DNA from: a virus
Lineage: Duplodnaviria; Heunggongvirae; Uroviricota; Caudoviricetes
IMG/VR virus record: IMGVR_UViG_2740892523_000006
Direction: 5' to 3' (one strand)
DNA length: 55,003 bases
How positions within the stretch are numbered: the stretch's first letter is position 1; every line of letters starts with the position of its first letter. Shown here piece by piece: positions 1 to 42,848 of the stretch. The notes under the pieces are model-generated. The model saw only the letters and a list, made by a program, of their open reading frames with translations, made no database searches and had not been told where the DNA came from. A program made the translations under genes and the position numbers.

Positions 1-458
1 GACAGTACAAAAGAGGCACTCACCGCGCTCAGTTCGCTGCACTGCTCAATGCGCCAGCGGCTGATCACCTCCTGCTCCGGATCGGCGTCGCTGTTTCCGT
101 TGACGAAGTTCACCGCATCCAGAAAACGGGCGTAAACCTTACGCCGGACCACCGTTCCGCCGACCAGACTCTGCAGGTCTTCCGCCATCCCCGTGACCAT
201 GCCGTGCAGGTTAGAAACCGTCAGTGTCGGACGGGCAGAACTGCCCTTGCCGTTCAGTTCAAATCCCGTCCCCTGAATGGGGTATGCCTGATACTGCCGC
301 CCCTGCCAGGTAACCGGCTCACCTTTTTCGTTCTGCTCATTACAGAAAAAATAACGTTCACCACCGACCTCTGTCAGATCGATTTCCCAGAGCACCGCCT
401 GGGCTGACTGAGTGAGGCGTGTCGTCTCATGATGTGTTTCCTGTGGAATATCCTGCAT
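1..458 (-). CDS. L: Lambdoid minor tail protein L, N-terminal part (gene runs off window start)
   Basis: Manual translation from ATG at 458 gives MQDIPQETHH...VLWEIDLTEVGGERYFFCNEQNEKGEPVTWQGRQYQAYPIQG, matching recalled lambda gpL; directly downstream of M. Confidence 0.75.
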   Translation of the reverse strand, partial: MQDIPQETHHETTRLTQSAQAVLWEIDLTEVGGERYFFCNEQNEKGEPVTWQGRQYQAYPIQGTGFELNGKGSSARPTLTVSNLHGMVTGMAEDLQSLVGGTVVRRKVYARFLDAVNFVNGNSDADPEQEVISRWRIEQCSELSAVSASFVL

Positions 459-467
459 CAGAGCCTC

Positions 468-797
468 CTATGCCACGACCTGTTCAAAATCTGCCGTTAT
501 GGTTACCCACAGCGCCCCCACGCTTGCCGACCATTTACGACAAACCACCCTGATCGGTTTCCAGTCATAAGGTGGCGTCCACTGAAATGCACGGACGCCA
601 CCGTGCCGTTCCAGAAAGGCTTTTAAAGATGGGTGTTCACATTTACGAACACGTATCGTCACGCTGTAAGTCGACAACTGGTTATTCAGTCCCGCCGCAC
701 GACGCTGTTCATAACCATCGCCCAGCTTCACTGTCACCACTTTCGGCTCTGATACCACATTCATATCCGGGCGCACTTTCCAGTGAAACGTCTCCAT
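468..797 (-). CDS. M: Lambdoid minor tail protein M
   Basis: 109 aa, METFHWKV...AFQWTPPYDWKPI...ADFEQVV closely resembles recalled lambda gpM (109 aa); position between H and L. Confidence 0.85.
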   Translation of the reverse strand: METFHWKVRPDMNVVSEPKVVTVKLGDGYEQRRAAGLNNQLSTYSVTIRVRKCEHPSLKAFLERHGGVRAFQWTPPYDWKPIRVVCRKWSASVGALWVTITADFEQVVA

Positions 798-2161
798 TAC
801 CGATATGCTCCACTTAACCGACCACCATCACGGGCCTGCTGTTGCATAAAGTCCGCTGCCGCTTTTTTCCCGAGGTCATAAACCGCCTTCAGGGCAGCCG
901 GACCTATCTGCCCGTTCGTGCCATCGTTATTGATCTCGATGTTGTACTGCGGGGAAAACATCGCCATACCTGAACCCCCAATATCCGCCACAACCCCCAG
1001 CTTACCGTCAGCACCACGACGCAATGGCAGAATGGCTTCAGGTCCCGCTTCCCCCATCACACCCGCGCCTTTTGCAAAAGCAAAAAACGTCGGACGGTTA
1101 ACCACCGTGCCACTGTAACGACTCAAATCAGCAGACTGATAAATCCCCCCATTGGCATTCAGGGAAAGGCTGCTGAGATCAAATCCCAGTACACTGCCAA
1201 TCCCTTTTATCGATTTCATCATGGTTGCCTGCGCCAGGATTTTCGCCATATCTGACAGCACAGAAGAGGTGAAGGATTTGAAATTGAGTTTGCCGGTAGT
1301 GACAAAAGTTGCCAGGCCATTTCCCATGTTGCTGAAGGCTGACGAGAACACCTGTTCTGCTGTTTCTGCCGTATTATCTGCATCCACGGTAAAATCCTGA
1401 AATGCACGCAGGACTCCGTTTTTCCAGTTACCCTGTACAACTTCAAGCTGTTGCCAGTAACGGCGATTCTCATTCAGTTGTCGGTTCAGGCTCTCCGTCA
1501 GCGCCTGCTCGGCCTTTCTGTAGTCATCCGTGTTATATGTCCCTTTCTGCTCACTATCCCGCCTCAACTGCTCCAGCTGTTGCTGGTATTTCTGGCGAAG
1601 ACTCAGTTGTACCTGATATCGCTGTCGCTGCTGATCACCCATACCCACCGTGGCGATATCCAGGTCATGTTGCTGACGCTGAGCGCGCTCTTCTTCAGCC
1701 AGTTGACTGGTCAGCTGAATTGTTTTTTTCTTCAGCTCGTTGAGTGCCGTCTGTTTCTGAAGCTCCTGCTGTTTTACATCCAGCAGCGTCAGTGCCTGAA
1801 TCAGTTCATCTTTACGGGCCAGCACACTCTTTTCATCTGCCGTCAGTTTTTTCCCGTCCAGGTCGCTGATGCGCTGCTGCAGAGCCAGAAGCTGTTTACG
1901 CGCTTCTGTCATCCTTTCCGTGGCAATGCCTGCTGACTGTCTGGCAGCAGCAATCTGTCCTTCCACCTGTGCCTGTTGCTGACTGTACTGCAGCAATAAC
2001 CGGGTGGCCTCATCATTACGGGTTTCGCGTGTTTTTTTCTTACCGGATGCCAGGGCTTTCTCGTAACGTTCATTTTCACGTTGTATCGCCGCATCCCTGA
2101 CAGCCTGATCGGCGTACTGCATGGCATTAATACGCGCTATTTCACGCTGATTATAGCGCGG
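797..2161 (-). pseudogene. H: Lambdoid tail tape measure protein H, C-terminal fragment (gene interrupted by Mu-like prophage)
   Basis: ORF 797-2287; C-terminus INNDGTNGQIGPAALKAVYD matches recalled lambda gpH C-terminus; its first ~45 codons read through the Mu-like right-end repeats. Confidence 0.75.
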
Positions 2162-2240
2162 CGATTTTTTTGATACCGATTTGCATTTCATTTGATACCG
2201 CTGAAAAACGCCGATACGCAACTTATTTGATACTAAATCG
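2162..2240. repeat. Mu-like right-end terminal repeats (putative transposase binding sites)
   Basis: TTTGATACCG at 2169-2178 and 2191-2200, related TTTGATACTA at ~2226; closely spaced as for Mu R1-R3. Confidence 0.55.
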
Positions 2241-2279
2241 GCGCTTTTCTTTTGAGTTTTAGAATGAGTTTTTAAGCGC

Positions 2280-3017
2280 TCATTCACTCTCTTTCAAACC
2301 AGTTTTAACTGTTTGTGGTTTTGGGTAAGGCTGGACTTTGAATAGCTTTGTGTTGAGGCGTTTTCTGGCCCTCTTGTTCAGAAACCGGATGTAACGAAAC
2401 TGTCGGAACTTATGAACACTGGCTCTGTCAATATTAGCCCTCAGATGTTCACCTCGTTGTCCGCCTCGTTTAATGGCATTCCTGCAAATCTCGTGATACC
2501 ACTCGCCATCAAGTTCATAGAATATTGATTCATGGCTGCCTACATAATCAAAATTGCTTGCCTGATACACGACACCAAGACAGCCACAACGCTCATCTGC
2601 AAACGACTGAACCCACTGTACCTGCGGATAAAGCTGCCTGATTAGCTTGAGCGCGTAACTGATTGCCCTTGATTCGGAGTTTCTCGGCATACAGTCATGC
2701 AGCCATAGCCGGTTAAGCTCCATATATTCTCGGTTCTGCGTACCCGTTACGACGCGTGCACCACTGTTTGGGTTAAGGGCGTAACCCCATTGCATTACGC
2801 CAACAAGTTCCCGTTCTGAAAATATGCCCAGATGAAGGTAGGAGTTATTTACGAAACGGTGGCTGTAATGTTTATTGACGATGACCAGTCTGGCCAGCCA
2901 GCAACTTATTGTCTCAACCCGCAACTCACGGGAGCCATAACCAACGATATTGTCGTTATAGCGAATAAGTTCAGGCGTGCTGATGATTCGGGATGTGACT
3001 TGCTTTCTGTTCCCCAC
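2280..3017 (-). CDS. mom: Mom-like DNA modification protein
   Basis: 245-aa ORF immediately downstream of and overlapping a Com-like zinc-finger gene, ~120 bp from prophage right end, as in Mu; sequence identity to Mom not verified. Confidence 0.6.
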
Positions 3018-3216
3018 GACAGGATTTCCTTGTGTATGTGGGGTGCTCTGTGGCGCTCGGAGATGTGATTTGATTGAGGGTTTTACAGCGCGGACATTTT
3101 ACTTCCAGATAACTGAAACTGGCCCGTGCCAGTAGCTTATTGCAGTGTCGGCACCGTATGTTTCGATACATGACCGCATAACCTCCTGCTTTGTTGTTGA
3201 TGCCTTTCTCATGCAA
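2971..3216 (-). CDS. com: Com-like zinc-finger translational regulator of mom
   Basis: [10 protein letters not shown]...EVKCPRCKT...EHPT matches recalled Mu Com CxxC...CxxC pattern; TTG start at 3216 or ATG at 3171; overlaps mom start. Confidence 0.7.
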
Positions 3217-3218
3217 TC

Positions 3219-3235
3219 GATCGACAAAAACGATC
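3219..3235. promoter_or_regulatory. Paired GATC (Dam) sites upstream of com/mom
   Basis: GATC at 3219-3222 and 3232-3235 just upstream of com start; Mu mom promoter is controlled by Dam methylation of clustered GATC sites. Confidence 0.4.
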
Positions 3236-3582
3236 GATTCGATTTGTTTAATTGATACAACAAATAGATTGAAAAGTCATCAACAATGATTCAGGGAGGT
3301 GATTATTTACTTAAAGAAAACGAAGAGTTAGGTGGTGAAAACGATCATAAAATGATCATTTTATTGACTTTTTATACAGTGAAGGTAGGATCACGCGTAT
3401 ATGTAGTATGTTTCAAATCAACAGGATACTACATAAAAGTGAAACCCAGCATAGCTGGAACTATGCTGGGTCAATCTGTAAAAACTTGCATCAATGCTTT
3501 ACTTCGAGCTCGTGGCGTATCCTATGATATTCCCCGGTCTCCTGTAAAGCAGAGATGCATAAAAAGGAGATCTTTATCATGG

Positions 3583-3750
3583 ATGAAAGAGCCTGTTTGC
3601 CCTGCCTGTAAGACTCCCTTACAGCTCATCTATCGCCGTTCTCGATCTCAAAATGGCAAGACATACAAACCCAAAAATGCTTCCTGTTTCAGGATGCTGA
3701 TATGTCCTGCCTGTTCTCCCAGGAGGGAAAATACACAAAACGTGCATTAA
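3583..3750 (+). CDS. Possible small zinc-ribbon protein (CPxC...CPxC)
   Basis: AAGGAG at 3564-3569 ~13 nt before ATG 3583; MKEPVCPACKT...ICPACSP; lies inside a longer 154-aa ORF of doubtful coding quality. Confidence 0.25.
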   Translation: MKEPVCPACKTPLQLIYRRSRSQNGKTYKPKNASCFRMLICPACSPRRENTQNVH

Positions 3751-3788
3751 CAAACTCACCCGGCAGGGAAACCTGCCGGTCGGTATTG

Positions 3789-4034
3789 TTACATCATAGT
3801 ACCGTCAGTTCCGGGCTGAACCGGCTCTGGTTGCTCTACGGGTTGAGGATCATTTTCCGTGCTGTTTTCAGCCGGAGAACGGCCAACCATTCGGGCCAGC
3901 ACTTCATCAACATATGCGTCGATTTGTGCCTCAAAATCCTTGCGAACCTGCGCCTTCAGCACGCGGTTCACTTCTTCAGAATAAAGTGCCTGTTTGACAA
4001 GCTCTTCAGTAACCGTGCCTTTAATCTCTGGCAT
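3789..4034 (-). CDS. Hypothetical protein (81 aa), downstream of esterase gene
   Basis: ORF in same orientation as esterase; acidic Pro-rich C-terminus; no family recognised. Confidence 0.4.
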   Translation of the reverse strand: MPEIKGTVTEELVKQALYSEEVNRVLKAQVRKDFEAQIDAYVDEVLARMVGRSPAENSTENDPQPVEQPEPVQPGTDGTMM

Positions 4035-4069
4035 GAATATTCTCCTTTTGCAGGTATATTGCCCCGTTA

Positions 4070-4252
4070 TCAGAGCGGGGTCGGGTCGTTTGGGGATGAC
4101 GGTGCCTGTGCTGTTTTACTGAGTTTTTCAGCTGCCGCATCATCAATTTTACGGCGAATATAATTTCTGATGACCTTATAACCACCGCTCACCAGATATA
4201 ACGCACTGACCACAGCGCAGAAATAAAGCAGCATTGTATGAACGAATGTCAT
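4070..4252 (-). CDS. Hypothetical small membrane protein (60 aa)
   Basis: N-terminal hydrophobic stretch LLYFCAVVSALYLVSGG then charged tail; same strand as esterase. Confidence 0.4.
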   Translation of the reverse strand: MTFVHTMLLYFCAVVSALYLVSGGYKVIRNYIRRKIDDAAAEKLSKTAQAPSSPNDPTPL

Positions 4253-4364
4253 ATAACCTTACCTTTGATATTGACTACATAATTCGTTATCGGGTAAAAA
4301 CATCGAAGCGACTGATAACCACTCCTTCGGGAGTATTTTTATTTTCCTTTATGGGTTAGGTAGC

Positions 4365-4400
4365 TCCCGCCAGCCATATCATGACCGGCGGGATTTTTTT
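4365..4400 (+). terminator. Candidate intrinsic terminator facing plus strand, abutting esterase stop
   Basis: CCCGCC...GGCGGG stem followed by ATTTTTTTATT on plus strand (4366-4403). Confidence 0.35.
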
Positions 4401-6438
4401 ATTCTGTTACCGCTTTTTTCACTTCCACCACAATGCTGTCAATCAGCACCGGGTAAGTTGCATTTTTTGTGATATCCGTTACGCGGAGTTTGTCCACCGG
4501 GAAAGTTCCTACTGGTGACTGCGTCAGGGTAAACGCGGCACCATCCTGACCATCAATAACCGGAATAACCTGAAGGCTGTTATTTCCTGCAAAACGGAAG
4601 GCCAGCGTATGCCATTCATTATCAAATGCACCAAAGGTTCCCAGTTTCTGGTTATTTGTTGCCACTTTTGCATTGTGGTACATCACATTCAGGTCTTTTG
4701 CGTCTGTCTGGATGTAGAACGATGCCAGCAGATTATTCCCTGCATCCCCTGTCAGGGTGACACCCTGCGGCAGAGAGGAAACCGGCCAGTAAAGCCCCAT
4801 GACATACTGGTTTGCCACCAGGTCGCCAGGTACTTTAAAACGACAACTGATTAAACCACCATTTTTCAGCAGTTCAGCACCAGTACCGGCATCATGATCC
4901 AGATACCAAGATGATTTACCTGTTTCCTTGGTCAGTTTCATTGCCTTACCACCTGTGCCTCCTGCATCACTGATAATTTCAGCTTTACCGCCAGCCGGCT
5001 CCCAGCCCTGGGCTTTCAGATTTCCTTCTGACTCACTGACACGATAAGACAGCAGTGTTGTGGTTACTGCTTCAGTTTCTGAAGGTGACGGCACTGGTGC
5101 TTCAGTTTCAGAAGATGGAACATCGGCTTTTACTGTGGTTCGCCCCGCATGAGTCAGAACTGCCGTGGCCAGACGGTCGGAAATAATCCCACGACGTGCC
5201 CATGAACTGAAATGGCTGGCCCGGTCCGCAGATGTCCAGGTGGCGGCACTGTTACGCCACGTTGAGCCGTAATAACCAATGGATTCAATATCCGGGTCTT
5301 CTGCCGGATTGTTGGTGGGTACATTCGCGTCATTTTCATCTGTCATTAATGGAACGAAATGAATGTTTTTATCTGTTTTGTTTTTGTAGCCGCCATAGAT
5401 TGCCTGGTATGCCGGTTCATTTTTCTGTTTCCAGAAATACGTGGTATCGCCACAAATCCACGGAACGCCAGCAGCACTGCCACCGGTACACTGTTCCGCC
5501 TGTTCAGCCAGGTCTGCGCGGAATTTTTCCACCATCGCCAGAAACAGCGCGGAATGCTCCGTCGGCTTCGCATCAATATCAAACTCGCCCTGCATCCACA
5601 CCACAGCAAGCAGGCGGTTTTTCGGGTTCTTCGCCAGTGCCGCTTTTGTCCGGCTGATTAAGTCCTTATACAGCGGCTTATCCACACCCCAGCGGGCTGA
5701 GTCCTCTGAAGCACCCGTGCTGTCACTGTACGTGCCGTCAGCACCCGCCGTGAATGCAGAACCACCACGGCAGCAGGGAACCAGCAGAATCCCCGCATCT
5801 GCCGGAATAAACGGCAGCAGTTTTTTGGCAATGTGAAGCCCCTGACCCACGGTGCCATATTGCCCTTTAGCCACATCCGCTTTCGGGTGATTTTTTCCAC
5901 TCATATCCTGCACATCATGCAGACAGTGGTCGGCCAGAATGATGTCGTTATACTGACAGGCTTTACCTCCCGGCGTGACTGTACTGCGACGGGCTAACTG
6001 CATAATACGCGGTTCGGGGCGGTCATATGTCTCCGGCAGTGGCAGACCTTCACCGTAAGCCATACCGTTTGACTGACCAGCAAGAACCACCACGTAATAC
6101 CAGGAAGGGGAGCTGGAAGCAGTTTCATTTCCTGACGGACGGGTATGTGTTTCAGCATTATCCCAGTCTGACGGTTCAGCAGTACCGGCAACATCAGCAC
6201 TTAACGGAATGACCGCACCAATACCCGCTCCGGTAATTTCCACACTCGGATCACCGGATACTGGCCTTACCCACAGGCAATCCCGTGTATTAAAACTGAT
6301 GAGACAGTCAGCAAATGTCATTCCTCCTTTTGTTTCGGCCGGAGGAAAGGGAGCCTCAAGAAATGCCGCTGTACCACCGGAAACTTTAACAGTAAAGTTT
6401 CCGGGCATTGATGATAGTTGAACCCATTTGGACGTCAT
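4399..6438 (-). CDS. SASA/SGNH-family carbohydrate O-acetylesterase with C-terminal lectin-like domain (NanS-p-like cargo gene)
   Basis: 679 aa; VVVLAGQSNGMAYGEG matches the GQSN esterase motif; SETEAPVPSPSETEAV linker; beta-rich C-terminal ~230 aa; no signal peptide. Confidence 0.65.
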   Translation of the reverse strand: MTSKWVQLSSMPGNFTVKVSGGTAAFLEAPFPPAETKGGMTFADCLISFNTRDCLWVRPVSGDPSVEITGAGIGAVIPLSADVAGTAEPSDWDNAETHTRPSGNETASSSPSWYYVVVLAGQSNGMAYGEGLPLPETYDRPEPRIMQLARRSTVTPGGKACQYNDIILADHCLHDVQDMSGKNHPKADVAKGQYGTVGQGLHIAKKLLPFIPADAGILLVPCCRGGSAFTAGADGTYSDSTGASEDSARWGVDKPLYKDLISRTKAALAKNPKNRLLAVVWMQGEFDIDAKPTEHSALFLAMVEKFRADLAEQAEQCTGGSAAGVPWICGDTTYFWKQKNEPAYQAIYGGYKNKTDKNIHFVPLMTDENDANVPTNNPAEDPDIESIGYYGSTWRNSAATWTSADRASHFSSWARRGIISDRLATAVLTHAGRTTVKADVPSSETEAPVPSPSETEAVTTTLLSYRVSESEGNLKAQGWEPAGGKAEIISDAGGTGGKAMKLTKETGKSSWYLDHDAGTGAELLKNGGLISCRFKVPGDLVANQYVMGLYWPVSSLPQGVTLTGDAGNNLLASFYIQTDAKDLNVMYHNAKVATNNQKLGTFGAFDNEWHTLAFRFAGNNSLQVIPVIDGQDGAAFTLTQSPVGTFPVDKLRVTDITKNATYPVLIDSIVVEVKKAVTE

Positions 6439-6537
6439 AATAATCAGCCTGTTCCTGAATAAACTGAATTATCATATCCACAGACCGATAAACGCCATTT
6501 TGCGTTAATTCAGTAAAGGCCCAACAAAGGGAGCGTC

Positions 6538-7098
6538 TTATTTTTCCGAAACGCTCGCAGGATAATAACGATAAAGGGTTGAAAGGCCGATATCAAAAAT
6601 AAGTGCCACCTGTCTTCGACTGACACCCCCGGCCAGTAAACGCCCGACCTGCTCGTATTGTTCCTGCGTGAGACGACGGGGTCTGCCGCCGGTTCGTCCC
6701 CTTTCACGGGCAGCTGCAAGACCAGCCCGTGTCCGTTCGACAATTAATTCACGCTCCATTTCTGCCAGCGCACCCATTATGTGAAAAAAGAAGCGCCCCA
6801 TGGGGGTTGACGTATCAATGTTGTCAGTAAGACTACGAAAATTTATCCCCTGTTGCTGTAATTCATCTGTCAGCGCAACAAGGTGGCGCATACTGCGCCC
6901 CAGCCTGTCCAGTTTCCAGACCATCAGTGTGTCACCGGGTTTTAGTTTCTTCAGTGCCCGCTTCAGTCCCGGCCGCTGTGTCGTTTTACCACTCATTTTA
7001 TCTTCAAAAATCTGCTCACATCCTGCACATTCCAGCGCATTTCTTTGTAAACCTGTGTTCTGGTCATTTGTTGATACGCGTATATAGCCAATCAGCAT
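6538..7098 (-). CDS. gin: Gin/Pin-family serine DNA invertase
   Basis: 186 aa, MLIGYIRVSTNDQNTGLQ...GINFRSLTDNIDTST...C-terminal HTH; resolvase/invertase N-terminal serine signature; adjacent to invertible segment. Confidence 0.9.
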   Translation of the reverse strand: MLIGYIRVSTNDQNTGLQRNALECAGCEQIFEDKMSGKTTQRPGLKRALKKLKPGDTLMVWKLDRLGRSMRHLVALTDELQQQGINFRSLTDNIDTSTPMGRFFFHIMGALAEMERELIVERTRAGLAAARERGRTGGRPRRLTQEQYEQVGRLLAGGVSRRQVALIFDIGLSTLYRYYPASVSEK

Positions 7099-7154
7099 GT
7101 ATTTACCTTCCTTAAAAAGAGGTGGAAAGGCCTTTTAAAGCAGATATACGGCAT

Positions 7155-7185
7155 CCCTGAAACCTCGGTTTACGGGATACTGTAA
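7155..7185. repeat. gix-like inversion crossover site (gin-proximal)
   Basis: AACCTCGGTTTACGGGATAC at 7161-7180 is an inverted copy (18/20) of 8526-8545 and resembles recalled Mu gix core AAACCTCGGTTTAC. Confidence 0.7.
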
Positions 7186-7523
7186 ACAGGGCCGCGAATG
7201 CCCTGCCATCGAACGGAGCGGCTGTTGCAGCGAATAAACTCGCCACTCCAAGAAATATTAATGGTGTCCCATTTGACGGAACGCAGGATATAAATATTAC
7301 ATCGGGGATGACGCAGTCTGTGGCTGACTCACGTTATGTTCAAAGCATTCGAAGAGGTTCAAGGTCAACGATTGGAATGCAATATAATATTTTTGAGGTT
7401 CCTGACGGATGCGTACTTACAGGGCTTGATGTCGCTGGTGATGGTAATGCAACGGTAACCGCATATTATCGACCTGTTCAGTTTCTGATAGATGGTTCGT
7501 GGAAAACAGCTTCCAGCGCATAA
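7161..7523 (+). other. Silent alternative tail-fibre C-terminal cassette (Sv-prime), no own start codon
   Basis: Frame open from 7161; translation NLGLRDTVNRAANALPSNGAAVAANKLATPRNINGVPFDGT... parallels S residues 194-321; would be fused to S constant part after inversion. Confidence 0.65.
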
Positions 7524-20401: not shown

Positions 20402-21349
20402 TTACAGATAATCCGCGACAACCAGCTCCAGCTTGCCCTTCATCTCGTTAGAGACGGTTGCGTTTCCGTCTGCGAACAGTTCACGCTCCAGCAGCTGCAC
20501 CGCCTGTTTTTCCAGCGAGGTGGGGACAACAATATGGGTGGGTTTAATGCCGAGTTTGCGGCCACCGTCAGCGGTAAATTCGCGCATGGCTGACCAGCCG
20601 TGCCACAGTGCATCCAGCGTCAGCGGTGACTGCATCATGTAGGCCATCTGCCAGAAGCCGTAGCCCACATTGCGACGGGCGGATGCACCAAACACAAATT
20701 CGTTATCGGTGAATGCGCGACCTTCATCGACTTTGGTCTGGGCAACCAGTTCAGCCTTACGGCGATCCTGATAAATCAGCGGTTTTACCGCGCGGGAGCA
20801 GTCAAGCAGATACCAGGCCGGACCGCTGTAATCAGCCTGTGCGCCGACAGAGCCGGTTTTTGCCACAAACATATTGCTGACCATCTGCGCATCCCCGGAG
20901 CCATCCACTTTGGGGTAAACCGGATGTTCGGTATCAAAGAAGTTCTGACCGTCATAGCAGGCCGCACTGATCCCGTCACGCAGGGCAGCAAAGACCAGCT
21001 CATCCGGTTGTACCGCCGCAGCGCGCCCCATCTCCTGGAACAACGGGGAATAAATACCGAGGTTGTCGTCTTCGAAGTCATCGCGGCTAATGGCGACAGT
21101 GCCTTCAAAAGTTTTGTTCACGATGGCATAGCCATAGGCTTTCATCTTCTCGATGACGCGGGAGCCGATCCACTCACGGAACTGCGGGAACTGCCCCAGC
21201 CAGCCGTAGGTGTTGGATTTCGATGTGGAGGGCACGGTCATCGCAATTTTTTTATACTGCGACGGGGCCATGGACATCCCGGCCTGAAAATCAGAACGGT
21301 AGCCCGTCATCAGGGCGGTGATCATCGCCGGTGTAATCGGGGTAGGCAT
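20402..21349 (-). CDS. Major head subunit (Mu T-like)
   Basis: 315 aa downstream of protease/scaffold gene; synteny. Confidence 0.7.
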   Translation of the reverse strand: MPTPITPAMITALMTGYRSDFQAGMSMAPSQYKKIAMTVPSTSKSNTYGWLGQFPQFREWIGSRVIEKMKAYGYAIVNKTFEGTVAISRDDFEDDNLGIYSPLFQEMGRAAAVQPDELVFAALRDGISAACYDGQNFFDTEHPVYPKVDGSGDAQMVSNMFVAKTGSVGAQADYSGPAWYLLDCSRAVKPLIYQDRRKAELVAQTKVDEGRAFTDNEFVFGASARRNVGYGFWQMAYMMQSPLTLDALWHGWSAMREFTADGGRKLGIKPTHIVVPTSLEKQAVQLLERELFADGNATVSNEMKGKLELVVADYL

Positions 21350-22473
21350 TATTGCATTTCCTCTTTCATTTTCAGGAACTCGGCTTCGGTTTTACCCAGC
21401 AGTTTGGCGGCCGCGATATCTTCAGCCGACAGCGCAGCGGTGGCAGTCTTTTTATCCGGCACGGTCACGGTGTCGGTCTGAAGAGAGGTCAGGGCCGCAA
21501 CCGGCTGGCGGGCGTCAAGCTGTGCAGAAAGTGCCGCAACGCCAATCTGCCCGCCCAGTTGTTCCAGATAGCCGCGTTCGCTTTTGAAGATGCGCCCTTC
21601 GGATTCAGCCTTGTCCAGCACCTGCTCCAGCGTGGTGCTGCCGTGCTGCGCCGACAGCGCAACGTATTCGGTACGCAGGGCGTTATACGTTTCAACGGGC
21701 ACGTATTTCGTCAGATCAATAATGCCGCCAGCCGGTGTGCCTTTTGCGGTTTCCAGCTCTGCCGACAGACTGGCGACCTGTGTTTTCAGGTTGTCGTGTG
21801 CATCCGCACGGGTTTTGATCCCGGTGAGGGCAGACAGCGCCGCCGTGCCCAGCTCCGGCGTAAATTCGTCACCGTCAGCCACGGTCAGACCGAGCGCCGT
21901 CAGCAACTGGCGTAATTGCTCATTCATGGAGGTATCCTTTAAAGGAGGGTTTAAGGCGTTATAAAGGTCATCCGCCGACAGCGCGGCGACAGGATTCATG
22001 CCGGTCAGACCGGGGTCACCGGTAATAGCCAGCATCCGAAGTTCGACAGGTTCGCCGGTGTTCTCGTCATAGCCAATCACCGGTGAAAACCAGGGGAATT
22101 CGTTATTACGCAGATGTTCAAGGGCCGGAGGGTTCCACTTCGGGCGCACCTCGAAGCCACGCTCTTCACTGAAGCGAAAATTCTCCGGTGAGGCCATCAC
22201 AAAACCGGCAGCCGGTGCCTGATGCCCCTTAATCAGGGTCTGGTGGTTGTAGTCAATTTTCACCGGCTGATTGAGCGCCACAACCCGGGATACCATGCGC
22301 TCAACGGTCGCACGGTTAATCAGCCAGCCCTCGGCCGGTTTTTCCGGGCGACCGTCACGGGCCTTTACCCGACCGGCTGGCATGATCTGACACCAGTCAC
22401 CGTCCCCGTCTGCGGACAGGCTGATGGCATTCAGAATGGCATAAGCAAGTTTGGGCGTGTTTTTCGTCTTCAT
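21349..22473 (-). CDS. Head protease/scaffold protein (Mu I-like)
   Basis: 374 aa; N-terminal part then Ala-rich coiled-coil C-terminus typical of scaffolds; synteny. Confidence 0.65.
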   Translation of the reverse strand: MKTKNTPKLAYAILNAISLSADGDGDWCQIMPAGRVKARDGRPEKPAEGWLINRATVERMVSRVVALNQPVKIDYNHQTLIKGHQAPAAGFVMASPENFRFSEERGFEVRPKWNPPALEHLRNNEFPWFSPVIGYDENTGEPVELRMLAITGDPGLTGMNPVAALSADDLYNALNPPLKDTSMNEQLRQLLTALGLTVADGDEFTPELGTAALSALTGIKTRADAHDNLKTQVASLSAELETAKGTPAGGIIDLTKYVPVETYNALRTEYVALSAQHGSTTLEQVLDKAESEGRIFKSERGYLEQLGGQIGVAALSAQLDARQPVAALTSLQTDTVTVPDKKTATAALSAEDIAAAKLLGKTEAEFLKMKEEMQ

Positions 22474-22649
22474 TCCGGCAGCATAAGCCGGGAATTTTCA
22501 GGGCGGGTTTTGCGGGATTTCAGGAAGTGCTTCCAGGGGAAAAATACAAAGGCGCTTCACGCAGATTTTAAAGCCCGTTAAATACAGGTTAGAAAATCAC
22601 GACACGCGCCTGAAGGGGGTAAGGTAATGCATTTGCATACCTTAAACAA

Positions 22650-23123
22650 TTAAGGCGTTTCTGTGGCCTTTTTAAAGCGTTTTCTGATTTCGTCCATGAT
22701 CTCCTGCTCTGCCACCTGATCAAAGCCCATATACGGGCGTGCGCCAATGGCCGCCGGTCCCGGTGGCATACCAGGCAGGCCACCCCACTGATGAATGGCC
22801 GCATAAGGCTCATTTGATCCAATCAGCGCCCAGGTATCGCCATAATCCGTGGTCAGGCGTCGGGCCAGATCGCCGTTCAGCGTCAGGATTTTGCCGGGCA
22901 TGTATCCCTTACGGGTACGCCACTTGCGGTAAGGATCTGACCAGTCATGCCAGCGTTCGCCGTCCGGCTCTTTTTCCTGTTCAAACGCCATTTCTGACGA
23001 TGACAGAAGACTCGCCGCCACACTGCGGGCCAGGTCTTTCCCTCCACCCACAAACTGAAGCCGGGCAAAGACCCGCTGGAGACGCGTAACGTCAACAACG
23101 ACAGCGGCATCAATGGATGACAT
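22650..23123 (-). CDS. Virion morphogenesis protein (Mu G-like)
   Basis: 157 aa between F-like and I-like genes. Confidence 0.55.
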   Translation of the reverse strand: MSSIDAAVVVDVTRLQRVFARLQFVGGGKDLARSVAASLLSSSEMAFEQEKEPDGERWHDWSDPYRKWRTRKGYMPGKILTLNGDLARRLTTDYGDTWALIGSNEPYAAIHQWGGLPGMPPGPAAIGARPYMGFDQVAEQEIMDEIRKRFKKATETP

Positions 23124-29875: not shown

Positions 29876-30376
29876 TCAGACTTTCGGCAAGTCGTAGCGA
29901 CATAACCATTCATCCGCCGAACGGCGGGCCTCAAGGCCGGGGAGTTTCACCCCCTTTGAATAAATCCAGCGGATATACTGCTTACAGGACGCGGGCATCT
30001 GCCCGGCATTGATCAGGCGCAGAAGCGTGGAGTTGCGAAAGTTCGTTTCACCGGCCCAGAAGATCCACGAAGCCAGCGCCACCGTCTGACCACGGGTAAG
30101 CGGCACCTGAACACGCCGATCAATGGCCGCAAAGGCCCATTTCATGTCCTTTTCCAGTAGTTCCAGGCATTCTTCATCTGTCAGGGTCATACCCGGTTTC
30201 ACATCCGGGCCGGTATGGCCGTAACAGATGGTGGGTGTACCGGTGGGATCGATATACGTGGAGTTTTCTTTCCCTTCCCAGTAACCGGTGTAATGCGTGG
30301 CAATCGTGAACGTCCCGGCACCGGCCAGAACAAGGGCAATCAGCTTTTTACGCAGTGGTGCGGGGAGTTTTGGCAT
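29876..30376 (-). CDS. SAR endolysin (lysozyme, Mu lys-like)
   Basis: 166 aa; N-terminal hydrophobic LIALVLAGAGTFTIA then lysozyme-like region sharing the TICYGHTG/CHGHTG and [18 protein letters not shown] motifs with the lambdoid endolysin at 53557. Confidence 0.8.
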   Translation of the reverse strand: MPKLPAPLRKKLIALVLAGAGTFTIATHYTGYWEGKENSTYIDPTGTPTICYGHTGPDVKPGMTLTDEECLELLEKDMKWAFAAIDRRVQVPLTRGQTVALASWIFWAGETNFRNSTLLRLINAGQMPASCKQYIRWIYSKGVKLPGLEARRSADEWLCRYDLPKV

Positions 30377-30447
30377 TGTTACGCTGTCTCATGATGTTCT
30401 CTGAGTCAGCGTAACGGTGAAGGAGAGGCGGCAGGCTTTGCGGAATA

Positions 30448-30873
30448 TCAGAAAAGTGGCGGTTGCGTTCTTACCAGATGCAGACGGCGCTGTTCGCGTA
30501 TGACGGTATAAATCTGGGTTTCTGACATCCGGTAATGGCGGCGAAGGGATTCAATTTTCTCGCCCCGGTCCCAGCGCGAAAATATCTCATTGTTTCGCAG
30601 CTCGGCAAAGAGAGATTCCCCGACCGGCAGGTAATAACCCCGTCCGCCCATATAGGCTGCCTGAGCCGCAGCCACCTTGCGTGCCAGTTTACCGGCCAGT
30701 ACCGGCTCAATCCCCTGACGCTGAAGTTCTGCGCCGGTGACTTCAACCAGTTCTGACAGGGTCCGCGGCCAGTTCTTTTTGAGAACATCATCAGGGATGT
30801 CATCAAGGCGGTCGATAAGGGCGTGCAGTTGCTCACTGTCACCACCAAACATGCTCATCTGAGTTTCTGCCAT
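30448..30873 (-). CDS. Mor/C-family transcriptional activator
   Basis: 141 aa, C-terminal HTH (RRHYRMSETQIYTVIREQRR); sits between gemA-like gene and lys. Confidence 0.65.
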   Translation of the reverse strand: MAETQMSMFGGDSEQLHALIDRLDDIPDDVLKKNWPRTLSELVEVTGAELQRQGIEPVLAGKLARKVAAAQAAYMGGRGYYLPVGESLFAELRNNEIFSRWDRGEKIESLRRHYRMSETQIYTVIREQRRLHLVRTQPPLF

Positions 30874-41093: not shown

Positions 41094-42848
41094 CCTGGTT
41101 ACATGATGTCGTGCTGCTTCCGTTTCATTCATCCGGTTCAGTGCAGCATTTTCAGCATTACGGCGTTTCTGTTGCTCCTGATAATTCCGCTCTGCCTGCT
41201 CTTTTGCATCCTGCAAATCCTTCTGGCGTTTTTTCTCCTGAAGATCGTTAAGACGCTGCTGATCGTATTCAACCTGAGAAGATGATGCCGTCCAGGGGAG
41301 TCTTTTCGCCCGCGACACTTTCTCCTGTAAAGCGGCAATCTGTTCATCCAGCGAGTCTTCACGACCAATATTCATGGCCGCATCCCAGAAACGACTCCAC
41401 AAATCAGACAGATACTTCAGCGTACTGCCAAGCGCATTGAGGTTATTATCAATATCCGCAGTACGCCGACCGGTTTCCTCTGCCAGTGCAGACATGGCTA
41501 TCCGTGCAGCATCACTGGACCGCCCCTGCTCCCCAAGGACGCGTATCTGCTCAAGCTGAGTGGCAGTAAGAAAATGCAGCTCATTGTCCAGAGCCTTCGC
41601 GGCATTTACAGGATCATCCTTCAGCCGCTTAAACTGATTTATGGTATCGCTGACCGACTGGCCAACCGATCGCTCCATCTGTGCGGCAGCTCTCGCCACC
41701 ATACCGATATCGTTTCCACGAAATGCACCACTCCCCACCACCTGAGCCAGCGCACCGGCTGCAGCATGTTGCGTGATACCATTCCCGGAAATAGCACGAC
41801 TGAGCGTCCACAGCTGCCCGGCAGTGACTCCGGCATAATGCCCCGTCAGCGACAGCTGGCGGTTAAATTCTTCCCCCTCCTTCTGACCGTCATACCAGGC
41901 TTTACCCAGACCATAGACAGCCGCGGCAATACCGCCAATAACCGCTCCTGGCATCATGCCTTTCGGTGACATCAGTGTGTCTATCCACCCGGCACGGTTA
42001 GCCAGCGTTATTCCGGATCCCCTCAGCGCACCTAAATTGCCGCGGGCCAGTTCACCTATCAGAACGCCTATCTCCTGACGGGCTGCTGCACTTTTCAGAC
42101 CCAGCGAATGCGTGGCTTTTCCTGCCTGCTCCATTTTGCGGATATACACTTCTGCAGCACTGCTTACCCCCAGCTGGGCAGCCTTAGCACGAAGCAACTC
42201 AGAAGAAGAAAGATTCTGGCGGGTTGCCTGCTCTTTAAGCTGACGGATAAACGCCACTTTCTGTCGGGTAGCCTCTTCCTCAGCCTGTGTAAGAACACGG
42301 GTTTTCGCCGTAACCTCAGAAATCAGCGCCAGATAATCCTGCTGACCAATCCCGCCACTGTTTCTGGCCTGTCGGATCTGTTGCTGAATACGCTGTAATT
42401 CCTGCAGCCCCGCACCGGCCTGTTTCACACTGTCAATCTGACGATAAAACGCAGCAGCCGCTTTATCCTGAGCCTCCGCCAGAGCCATGGCCTGCGCCTG
42501 TTCCTCGCGCATTTTCTGGCTCAGTGCCTCCATACGCTGGCGGGTTTGCTCCACCTCGCGGGCCATGCGTTCATGAGCCTGTGCGCTCTTCTCCACCGTC
42601 TGCGCATGGACGGATGCGGCTGTTGCAGCCGAAGAAGCCGCCTGCATTGTCTGCCGGGCGGCCTGAGTCTGACGCTCCATAAAACGCTGCATACGGGCAG
42701 AAGACCGTTCTGCATCGCTGGCTGCACCATTCAGAAGGTTTTTGATACGGGGAATTTCATTTTTAAACTCTGCCGCATCAATCCCCAAATCAATGACCAG
42801 GTTGGCTATCTGGTCCATAACGCACACCTCCGGAAATACCTTCCCCAA
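41091..42848 (-). pseudogene. H: Lambdoid tape measure protein H, N-terminal fragment, truncated at Mu-like insertion
   Basis: 585 aa; N-terminus MDQIANLVIDLGIDAAEFK resembles recalled lambda gpH start; stop codon TGA 41091-41093 coincides with first bases of Mu-like end. Confidence 0.75.

Follow-up and report, generated by a model that had tools for sequence, protein, structure and literature searches.

NanS-p, a prophage-encoded sialate O-acetylesterase, is thought to let Shiga-toxin-producing Escherichia coli use the O-acetylated sialic acids of gut mucus, and many copies are carried per strain. Its lambdoid members include L0105/z1466 of phage 933W, vb_24B_21/gp84 of phi24B and gp44 of 1717. 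The protein described here is encoded on the minus strand of a 55,003-nucleotide virus record (IMG/VR IMGVR_UViG_2740892523_000006; 'the window' denotes this whole stretch) and is a predicted NanS-p-type sialate O-acetylesterase of a transposable Mu-like phage. The enzyme family is known; the new elements are its N-terminal architecture and its Mu-like phage host. A literature search, which several key subscription papers lay beyond, returned no paper joining nanS-p with Mu-like phages, and an earlier description is possible; the Sp18-type prophage, for its part, has been described in detail (PMC2669165, PMC7430833).

Canonical NanS-p starts with DUF1737, which spans residues 3–53 in 933W (PMC10462455) and folds as one helix and three strands (bioRxiv 10.64898/2026.04.10.717836). 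In phi24B, gp84 is reported to be a proteolytically processed, capsid-decorating protein held on the hexons by a DUF1737 hexamer (bioRxiv 10.64898/2026.04.10.717836). NanS-p proteins of EDL933 and O104:H4, the only alleles with documented activity, have been reported to be active on 5-N-acetyl-9-O-acetylneuraminic acid (Neu5,9Ac2) and on mucin glycans (PMC8065619, PMC8319020), and nanS-p is expressed late in Shiga toxin (Stx) phages, from pR′ under Q (PMC8065619). The chromosomal relative NanS (YjhS), a 9-O-acetyl-N-acetylneuraminate esterase, is represented by structure 3PT5.

With the lambdoid proteins, the esterase of the window shares the SASA domain (82% identity), the lectin-like C-terminal domain (78–79%), a Pro/Ser-rich linker and a prophage location; they lack a signal peptide, and none is apparent here by a hydropathy scan; genes for DUF1378 and DUF826 proteins follow it, as in some lambdoid late regions (PMC10462455). 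It differs from them in four respects: an unrelated beta domain of ∼80 residues stands where they have DUF1737; its gene is carried by a transposable, Mu-like myovirus and not by a lambdoid phage; that gene is found between gin and com, with the lysozyme gene ∼23 kb away, rather than between stx/Q and the holin gene; and its predicted control is by a Mor/C-type activator instead of Q antitermination. The catalytic and C-terminal domains by which NanS-p is recognized are thus present, whereas DUF1737 and the lambdoid late-region location are not. NanS belongs to the same SGNH fold family but is a single-domain chain of 337 residues in the sialic-acid regulon of the host, whereas the protein described here is phage encoded and bears additional N- and C-terminal domains.

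Domain architecture and active site

An earlier note, made from the letters of this stretch, had proposed a SASA/SGNH esterase of the NanS-p type with a lectin-like domain, and profile and structure comparisons bear this out. The 679-residue open reading frame (ORF) does begin with ATG on the minus strand (Table 1); it matches phrog_143 over residues 62–677 (E = 0) and Pfam SASA (PF03629) with 46 bits against a cut-off of 24.8. Residues 104–428 align with the E. coli NanS/YjhS structure 3PT5 (E = 2e-118, 58% identity over 320 aligned residues). The GQSN motif that the note had pointed out occupies residues 121–124 and opens the first of four active-site blocks, GQSNG (121–125, with Ser123), RGGSAF (224–229), MQGEFD (282–287) and RASHFS (406–411, with His409). 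The equivalent blocks of 3PT5 are GQSNA, RGGSAF, MQGEFD and R-x-SHFS (PMC10792757), so that RGGSAF, MQGEFD and SHFS are identical and the first block ends in Gly here versus Ala, and RSSH/RASH is a recognized block of the NanS-p family (PMC10462455). Since a main-chain carbonyl oxygen acts as the catalytic acid in 3PT5 (PMC10792757), Ser123 and His409 would be expected to function without an Asp side chain. The reading of the note would have fallen had neither an esterase fold nor a catalytic arrangement been found; this is not the case, as all four NanS blocks are present. The family uses a Ser/His pair with a main-chain carbonyl (PMC10792757) and not the Ser/His/Asp triad that the note named.

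The beta-rich C-terminal domain that had been read from the translation proves to be DUF6645 (PF20350; E = 2.4e-69, 231 bits), and residues 459–674 align with the lectin-like domain of phi24B NanS-p (6YP6; E = 1e-111, 79% identity). The carbohydrate site proposed for the phi24B domain is lined by the aromatic residues Y510, Y515, Y540 and F611 (PMC10462455), all four of which are retained, as Y545, Y550, Y575 and F646. A BLASTP alignment of residues 102–673 with the NanS-p of Stx2 phage 1717 (gp44, 645 aa) gives 78% identity overall. The catalytic domain alone is 82% identical and the C-terminal domain 78.5%, as against 36% for linker 2, the length of which varies in the homologue alignment. 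Linker 2 (residues 433–460) corresponds to the Pro/Thr/Glu-rich linker noticed earlier, with Ser also abundant. SSP-type linker motifs have been proposed as self-cleavage sites in phi24B gp84; here SSSP is present at residues 107–110 and linker 2 has PSPS only, neither of which we count as evidence of self-cleavage.

A hydropathy scan, in agreement with the earlier reading, detected no signal-peptide-like hydrophobic stretch (12-residue Kyte-Doolittle means peak at 1.19 within the first 50 residues); over the full length of the protein, 19-residue means do not exceed 1.38. The ratio of nonsynonymous to synonymous change, 0.10–0.12 for the catalytic domain and 0.10–0.24 across both known domains, reveals purifying selection. 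Taken together, these comparisons lead us to predict that the protein is a NanS-p-type sialate O-acetylesterase, and public records already name it 'sialate O-acetylesterase' or 'DUF6645 domain-containing protein'.

The esterase gene is real and maintained, and a chance ORF is excluded. The representative of its 90%-identity cluster is 99% identical to it, and the cluster holds 1046 member sequences with the reading frame intact. The surrounding 5 kb (window 2200–7200) are matched at 99% identity or more by 131 complete-genome records of E. coli, some of them from O157:H7 strains, and at least 80% of this region is carried by 168 of 5426 genomes. Some RefSeq records begin at Met11 (669 aa); because the residues ahead of Met11 are conserved, with K/Q-W-x-x-L kept at the protein level in two diverged lineages, we favor the start codon at 6438. 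As the note had stated, the gene is extra cargo of a Mu-like prophage, lying between gin and com/mom at a position that is empty in Mu itself: there the end of gin (35673) and the start of com (35768) are 94 bp apart, compared with ∼3.3 kb in the window.

An N-terminal domain unrelated to DUF1737

The first ∼80 residues, which the earlier note overlooked, are unlike those of canonical NanS-p. DUF1737 (PF08410) has no match anywhere in the protein, and residues 1–115 are without any Pfam match at E ≤ 10. In BLASTP with the 1717 protein, similarity starts only at residue 102, the N-termini cannot be aligned with those of DUF1737-bearing proteins, and DNA similarity to Stx phages is confined to window positions ∼4410–6093.

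Residues 1–105, compared by phmmer with 1.84 billion cluster representatives, gave five matches, four of them to pieces of esterase genes of this type. The remaining one, a 1445-residue Ala/Gly/Thr-rich repeat protein (P0005) that aligned with residues 53–103 nine times, was judged to be compositional, and a match of residues 3–68 to phrog_4772 (79 positions, unknown function) was too weak to be accepted (E = 0.0066). A word-indexed homologue search with residues 1–111 recovered near-identical fragments only, and a scan of GTDB species representatives with an alignment of the domain yielded nothing that was confirmed. By tblastn against the phage collection, the domain matched just two Stx-phage records, both with a Mu-like phage inserted in them, and no paralogue was found elsewhere in the window.

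An AlphaFold2 (AF2) model of the domain built from six sequences has six beta strands, with block-mean predicted local distance difference test (pLDDT) values of 72–87 for residues 1–70 and 58 for residues 71–80. The predicted fold is a small cupin-like barrel; the domain has no histidine, and a metal-cupin enzyme is therefore unlikely. A fold search of residues 1–80 against solved structures gave no significant match, and in BFVD weak matches (E ∼1e-2) were to uncharacterised, free-standing phage proteins of ∼90 residues. Identity of the domain is 57–59% with a second clade of these esterases (clade 2, below) and 29% with a third lineage. Relative to the clade-2 gene, nonsynonymous difference in this region amounts to 0.24 against a saturated synonymous difference of 0.79, the signature of purifying selection. 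On these comparisons, residues 1–80 constitute a real, selected domain.

A candidate late promoter

The 100-bp spacer between gin and the esterase gene contains two blocks conserved between clades, one of which is TGAATTNNCGCAAAA, followed after 21 nt by TATGAT. In clade 2 the motif is kept and the hexamer after the conserved block is TATTCT or TATGCT. A search of the whole window with the 15-mer returned a one-mismatch copy at 22508–22522, immediately 5′ of the gene I homologue. This copy, at a known late-promoter position, is the part of the evidence that is independent; by our calculation, ∼0.07 such hits would be expected by chance across the window. The composite pattern TGAWWTNNCGCAAAN + 20–23 nt + TAYGMT occurs at exactly three sites in the 55 kb, with spacers of 21–22 nt, all on the strand of the phage late genes (Table 1); the two sites other than that of the esterase are at the positions of Plys and PI of Mu. 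None of 300 Markov shuffles contained the pattern, a significance that is overstated because the pattern was refined after the sites had been seen.

Mu late promoters have a −10 hexamer, no −35 hexamer and a C-binding element within −52 to −34 (PMC2582627). If transcription is assumed to start ∼7 nt past the hexamer, the motif covers ∼−48 to −34, inside the C-dependent region of Mu. The motif core, AATCCCGCA, also resembles the Mu Plys and PI sequences, in a different register to the −10; this resemblance was not used. From the placement of the motif at the Plys- and PI-equivalent sites, together with the independent hit, we infer, with a moderate degree of confidence, that the Mu-like phage expresses the esterase as a late, activator-dependent gene with its own candidate promoter, in line with the late expression of nanS-p in Stx phages. 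Such timing speaks against classical lysogenic conversion by a silent prophage, one of the roles that had been suggested for the gene; judged by the candidate promoter motif, membership in the late lytic regulon is more likely.

Distribution and mosaicism

Two architectures are found among full-length homologues. The first, DUF1737 + SASA + DUF6645 in ∼645 residues, belongs to lambdoid prophages, and the second, in which the new N-terminal domain precedes SASA and DUF6645, comprises the 679-residue group and clade 2, whose members (681–691 aa, from E. coli and Shigella sonnei) are 64–66% identical to that group. The loci examined for the N-terminal domain were four clade-2 contigs, 34 IMG/VR loci and one third-lineage contig. 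At every one of them, and thus in all three lineages, the domain is fused to a NanS-p-type esterase at the right end of a Mu-like phage, and it was found in no other setting. Gene order usually runs from baseplate, tail fibre and assembly genes through gin and the esterase to DUF1378, DUF826, com and mom; a gin match is missing in seven of the IMG/VR loci, and DUF1378 follows the esterase in 32 of 35 related loci, the sequence ending inside or just past the esterase gene in the other three (L010, L032 and L040). In the clade-2 loci L004–L007, a DNA methylase gene (PF00145) replaces mom after com, and the prophage adjoins type VI secretion genes.

No DNA similarity was detected between the lambdoid records and the DUF1378–DUF826 segment of the window, and blastn of the phage collection with the DNA from DUF1378 through DUF826 to the 154-codon ORF beyond it produced no match outside Mu-like inserts. 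Given this lack of lambdoid DNA matches and the Mu-like distribution, the cassette is a long-standing resident of the Mu-like lineage and was not newly imported.

The gene is a mosaic, and its esterase body appears from allele comparisons to keep exchanging with lambdoid alleles. In loci L019–L022 identity to the window is 96–98% in the N-terminal domain, 67–69% in the esterase domain and 38–45% in the C-terminal domain, and C-terminal domains of different alleles are 38–100% identical. One contig of the draft genome GCA_012426925.1 (L008, positions 1–4789) carries a lambdoid late region and a DUF1737 N-terminus; where the esterase domain begins, these give way to a body that shares 98% identity with that of the window gene (window 2149–6084 compared), followed by DUF1378, DUF826, com, mom and the Mu right end. 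This hybrid suggests homologous recombination between lambdoid and Mu-like prophages within their esterase genes; a chimera of short-read assembly is another possible origin. The esterase sequence that the two kinds of prophage have in common may thus be a site of homologous recombination between them.

Proposed role and alternative explanations

The best overall explanation of the locus, and in our judgment a probable one, is a phage-borne NanS-p-type esterase that acts on O-acetylated sialic acids. Homology, active-site and binding-site residues, architecture, genetic context and selection are the observations behind it, from which we infer the substrate, the timing of expression and the route of release. 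Upon lytic growth of the Mu-like prophage, the activator would turn on the esterase gene alongside the lysis and head genes, so that the enzyme would be made in the lytic phase and a quiescent lysogen would not express it. As the protein has no signal-peptide-like stretch, it would leave the cell at phage lysis. The lectin-like domain may then hold the enzyme on sialoglycans such as mucin O-glycans, where the SGNH domain, with Ser123 as nucleophile and His409 as base, would strip O-acetyl groups, for example from Neu5,9Ac2. The de-acetylated sialic acids could feed the sialidases and the sialic-acid pathway of surviving kin.

Several points weigh against this explanation. Substrate specificity is extrapolated from paralogues that are 58–82% identical in the catalytic domain. 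The full-length AF2 model (15-sequence alignment) reaches a mean pLDDT of only 54.5, with the esterase domain poorly modelled; it was not used for fold comparison and is too poor to confirm the fold independently. Concerning expression, the shuffle statistic is partly circular, the pattern having been defined post hoc, and the composite motif was not found upstream of com/mom, the site of the fourth Mu-type late promoter. A generic scan for sigma-70 promoters and terminators found promoters at a level not above chance, and read-through from gin or from the tail operon is a possible source of expression.

The same enzymology could be delivered differently if the N-terminal domain fastened the esterase to the Mu-like particle, on its capsid or its tail. 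By analogy with phi24B, a different N-terminal domain stands in the place of the DUF1737 anchor and is followed by a disordered linker. Its restriction to Mu-like phages (35 of 35 loci) in three lineages, down to 29% identity, could reflect attachment to one kind of particle, but vertical descent explains it equally well. The constancy of the domain while esterase and C-terminal domains are swapped (L019–L022) is likewise what an anchor would produce, although recombination limited to the stretch of lambdoid homology, from window ∼6093 downward, would leave the same mosaic. The purifying selection on the domain, the candidate late promoter in common with head gene I and the size of the BFVD matches, free-standing phage proteins of ∼90 residues, are also in keeping with a virion component. 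A possible analogue of such an anchor, as we take it, is the O-antigen deacetylase tailspike gp63.1 of phage G7C, in which an SGNH esterase has an N-terminal adaptor and a carbohydrate-active body. Virion-borne deacetylases of that kind act on bacterial lipopolysaccharide and are trimeric tailspikes, with their genes among those for the tail. The esterase gene of the window is distant from both head and tail genes, however, the cupin-like barrel is unlike DUF1737 and matched no known decoration protein, and the argument is one of analogy in domain position alone. We therefore consider virion anchoring somewhat unlikely.

A more general form of the idea, that the N-terminal domain of NanS-p is a swappable adaptor for the particle type (DUF1737 for lambdoid capsids, the orphan beta domain for Mu-like particles), is likewise drawn by analogy, and we put it forward as tentative and rather doubtful. 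As the canonical N-terminal domain has been reported to be a capsid anchor, its replacement offers a natural test of the virion-component idea. If the adaptor reading were true, Mu-like phages of pathogenic E. coli would bear on their surface an enzyme that binds mucin and deacetylates sialate, and the 80-residue domain would represent a new family of virion-anchoring modules. Another possibility for residues 1–80 is an additional carbohydrate-binding module.

The substrate might instead be a bacterial surface glycan such as O-acetylated O-antigen, capsule or colanic acid, in which case the enzyme would aid phage adsorption or release in the manner of tailspike deacetylases. Such a role for NanS-p has been left open in the literature (PMC8065619), and the strong variation of C-terminal domains between alleles is of the kind seen in receptor-facing modules. 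It is nonetheless improbable, since the catalytic domain is 58% identical to that of the sialate-specific NanS and 82% identical to that of 1717 NanS-p, in a family with demonstrated activity on Neu5,9Ac2, and the proposed carbohydrate site keeps the four aromatic residues of phi24B. The earlier proposal of a glycan-modifying depolymerase does not apply, as an esterase is not a depolymerase. Least credible of all, and largely refuted by conservation, is a decaying hitch-hiker, a NanS-p fragment that acquired a meaningless N-terminal extension by illegitimate recombination: the N-terminal region has no family assignment and some RefSeq records start at Met11, but the frame is intact across the 1046-member cluster, the N-terminal domain is predicted to fold and is conserved in two other lineages with nonsynonymous far below synonymous change, and the catalytic and binding residues are intact.

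The gene shows that the NanS-p body has also been taken up by a transposable Mu-like phage, one that is widespread in O157:H7 and other E. coli strains, in a version with a different N-terminal module and with its gene apparently within the phage's own late regulon. Our basic understanding of the NanS-p family is unchanged by these findings.

Genomic setting and neighbouring features

Table 1. Coordinates of the esterase gene, its domains and the features around it (window positions).
Feature	Position	Strand	Description and basis
Sialate O-acetylesterase gene	4399..6438	−	679 codons, ATG start, stop codon 4399–4401; intact ORF
Orphan all-beta domain (predicted)	6199..6438	−	Residues 1–80, in place of DUF1737; AF2 model, homologue comparison
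Linker 1	6103..6198	−	Residues 81–112, ends ASSSPSW; predicted disordered, pLDDT <50
SGNH/SASA catalytic domain (predicted)	5143..6102	−	Residues 113–432; 3PT5 match, active-site blocks
Linker 2	5059..5142	−	Residues 433–460, Pro/Ser/Thr/Glu-rich, RTTVKADVPSSETEAPVPSPSETEAVTTTL; read from sequence
Lectin-like jelly-roll C-terminal domain (predicted)	4402..5058	−	Residues 461–679, Pfam DUF6645; 6YP6 match
Candidate activator-dependent late promoter	6471..6512	−	TGAATTAACGCAAAA, 21 nt, TATGAT; no −35 hexamer; motif and conservation
Composite motif site	30408–30450	−	Between Mor/C-family activator gene (30448–30873) and lysozyme gene (29876–30376)
Composite motif site	22480–22522	−	Between G (22650–23123) and I (21349–22473) homologues
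gin	6538–7098	−	Resolvase and HTH_7 domains
DUF1378 gene	4070..4252	−	Small membrane-type protein, 60 aa; Pfam PF07125, E 1.2e-38; downstream partner of the esterase gene
DUF826 gene	3789..4034	−	81 aa; Pfam PF05696, E 2.8e-15; downstream partner; position kept in related loci
154-aa ORF	3286..3750	+ (convergent)	Two CxxC pairs; phrog_26524 (unknown function), E 2.5e-52; in the same extra segment
com	2971–3171	−	
mom	2280–3017	−	
G+C-rich hairpin, then T7 on + reading	4365..4400	+	Read from sequence; abuts/overlaps the esterase stop codon

The Mu-like prophage spans 2152–41103 (∼39 kb) and encodes MuA, MuB, a CI-type repressor, GemA, a Mor/C-family activator, lysozyme, gpI, gpT, Mom, and tape-measure and baseplate proteins. 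It sits in the tape-measure gene of a lambdoid prophage, which it splits into 797–2147 and 41108–42848, and has a direct repeat of 4 bp, TGAT, on either side (2148–2151 and 41104–41107). Removal in silico of the element and one TGAT copy restores 100% identity over 600 nt to the intact tape-measure genes of many O157:H7 genomes. Duplications produced by Mu are classically of 5 bp. In GenBank record LC727895, a related insertion, 4 bp are annotated too.

NCBIfam and PADLOC have no match for the esterase or its three small neighbours. The 154-residue ORF has no Pfam match either, and it is found in some of the related Mu-like loci only.

The hairpin at the end of the esterase gene appears terminator-like for convergent transcription on the plus strand, which would come from the side of the 154-residue ORF and pass antisense through the DUF826 and DUF1378 genes; on the esterase's own strand it has no U-run. 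The consensus terminator scanner overlooked it because its loop exceeds 8 nt.

The 10 nt just outside the Mu right end (TCACGCTGAT, window 2142–2151) are the same as positions 5943–5952 of locus L001, where the insertion is at a different site, an frvX-like aminopeptidase gene of strain FDAARGOS_293. The identical flanks reflect either an unusually specific target preference or coincidence. Upstream of com, a cluster of GATC-containing repeats at window 3220–3260 (aatcgaatcgatcgtttttgtcgatcgatt) resembles the Dam/OxyR-controlled region of Mu Pmom.

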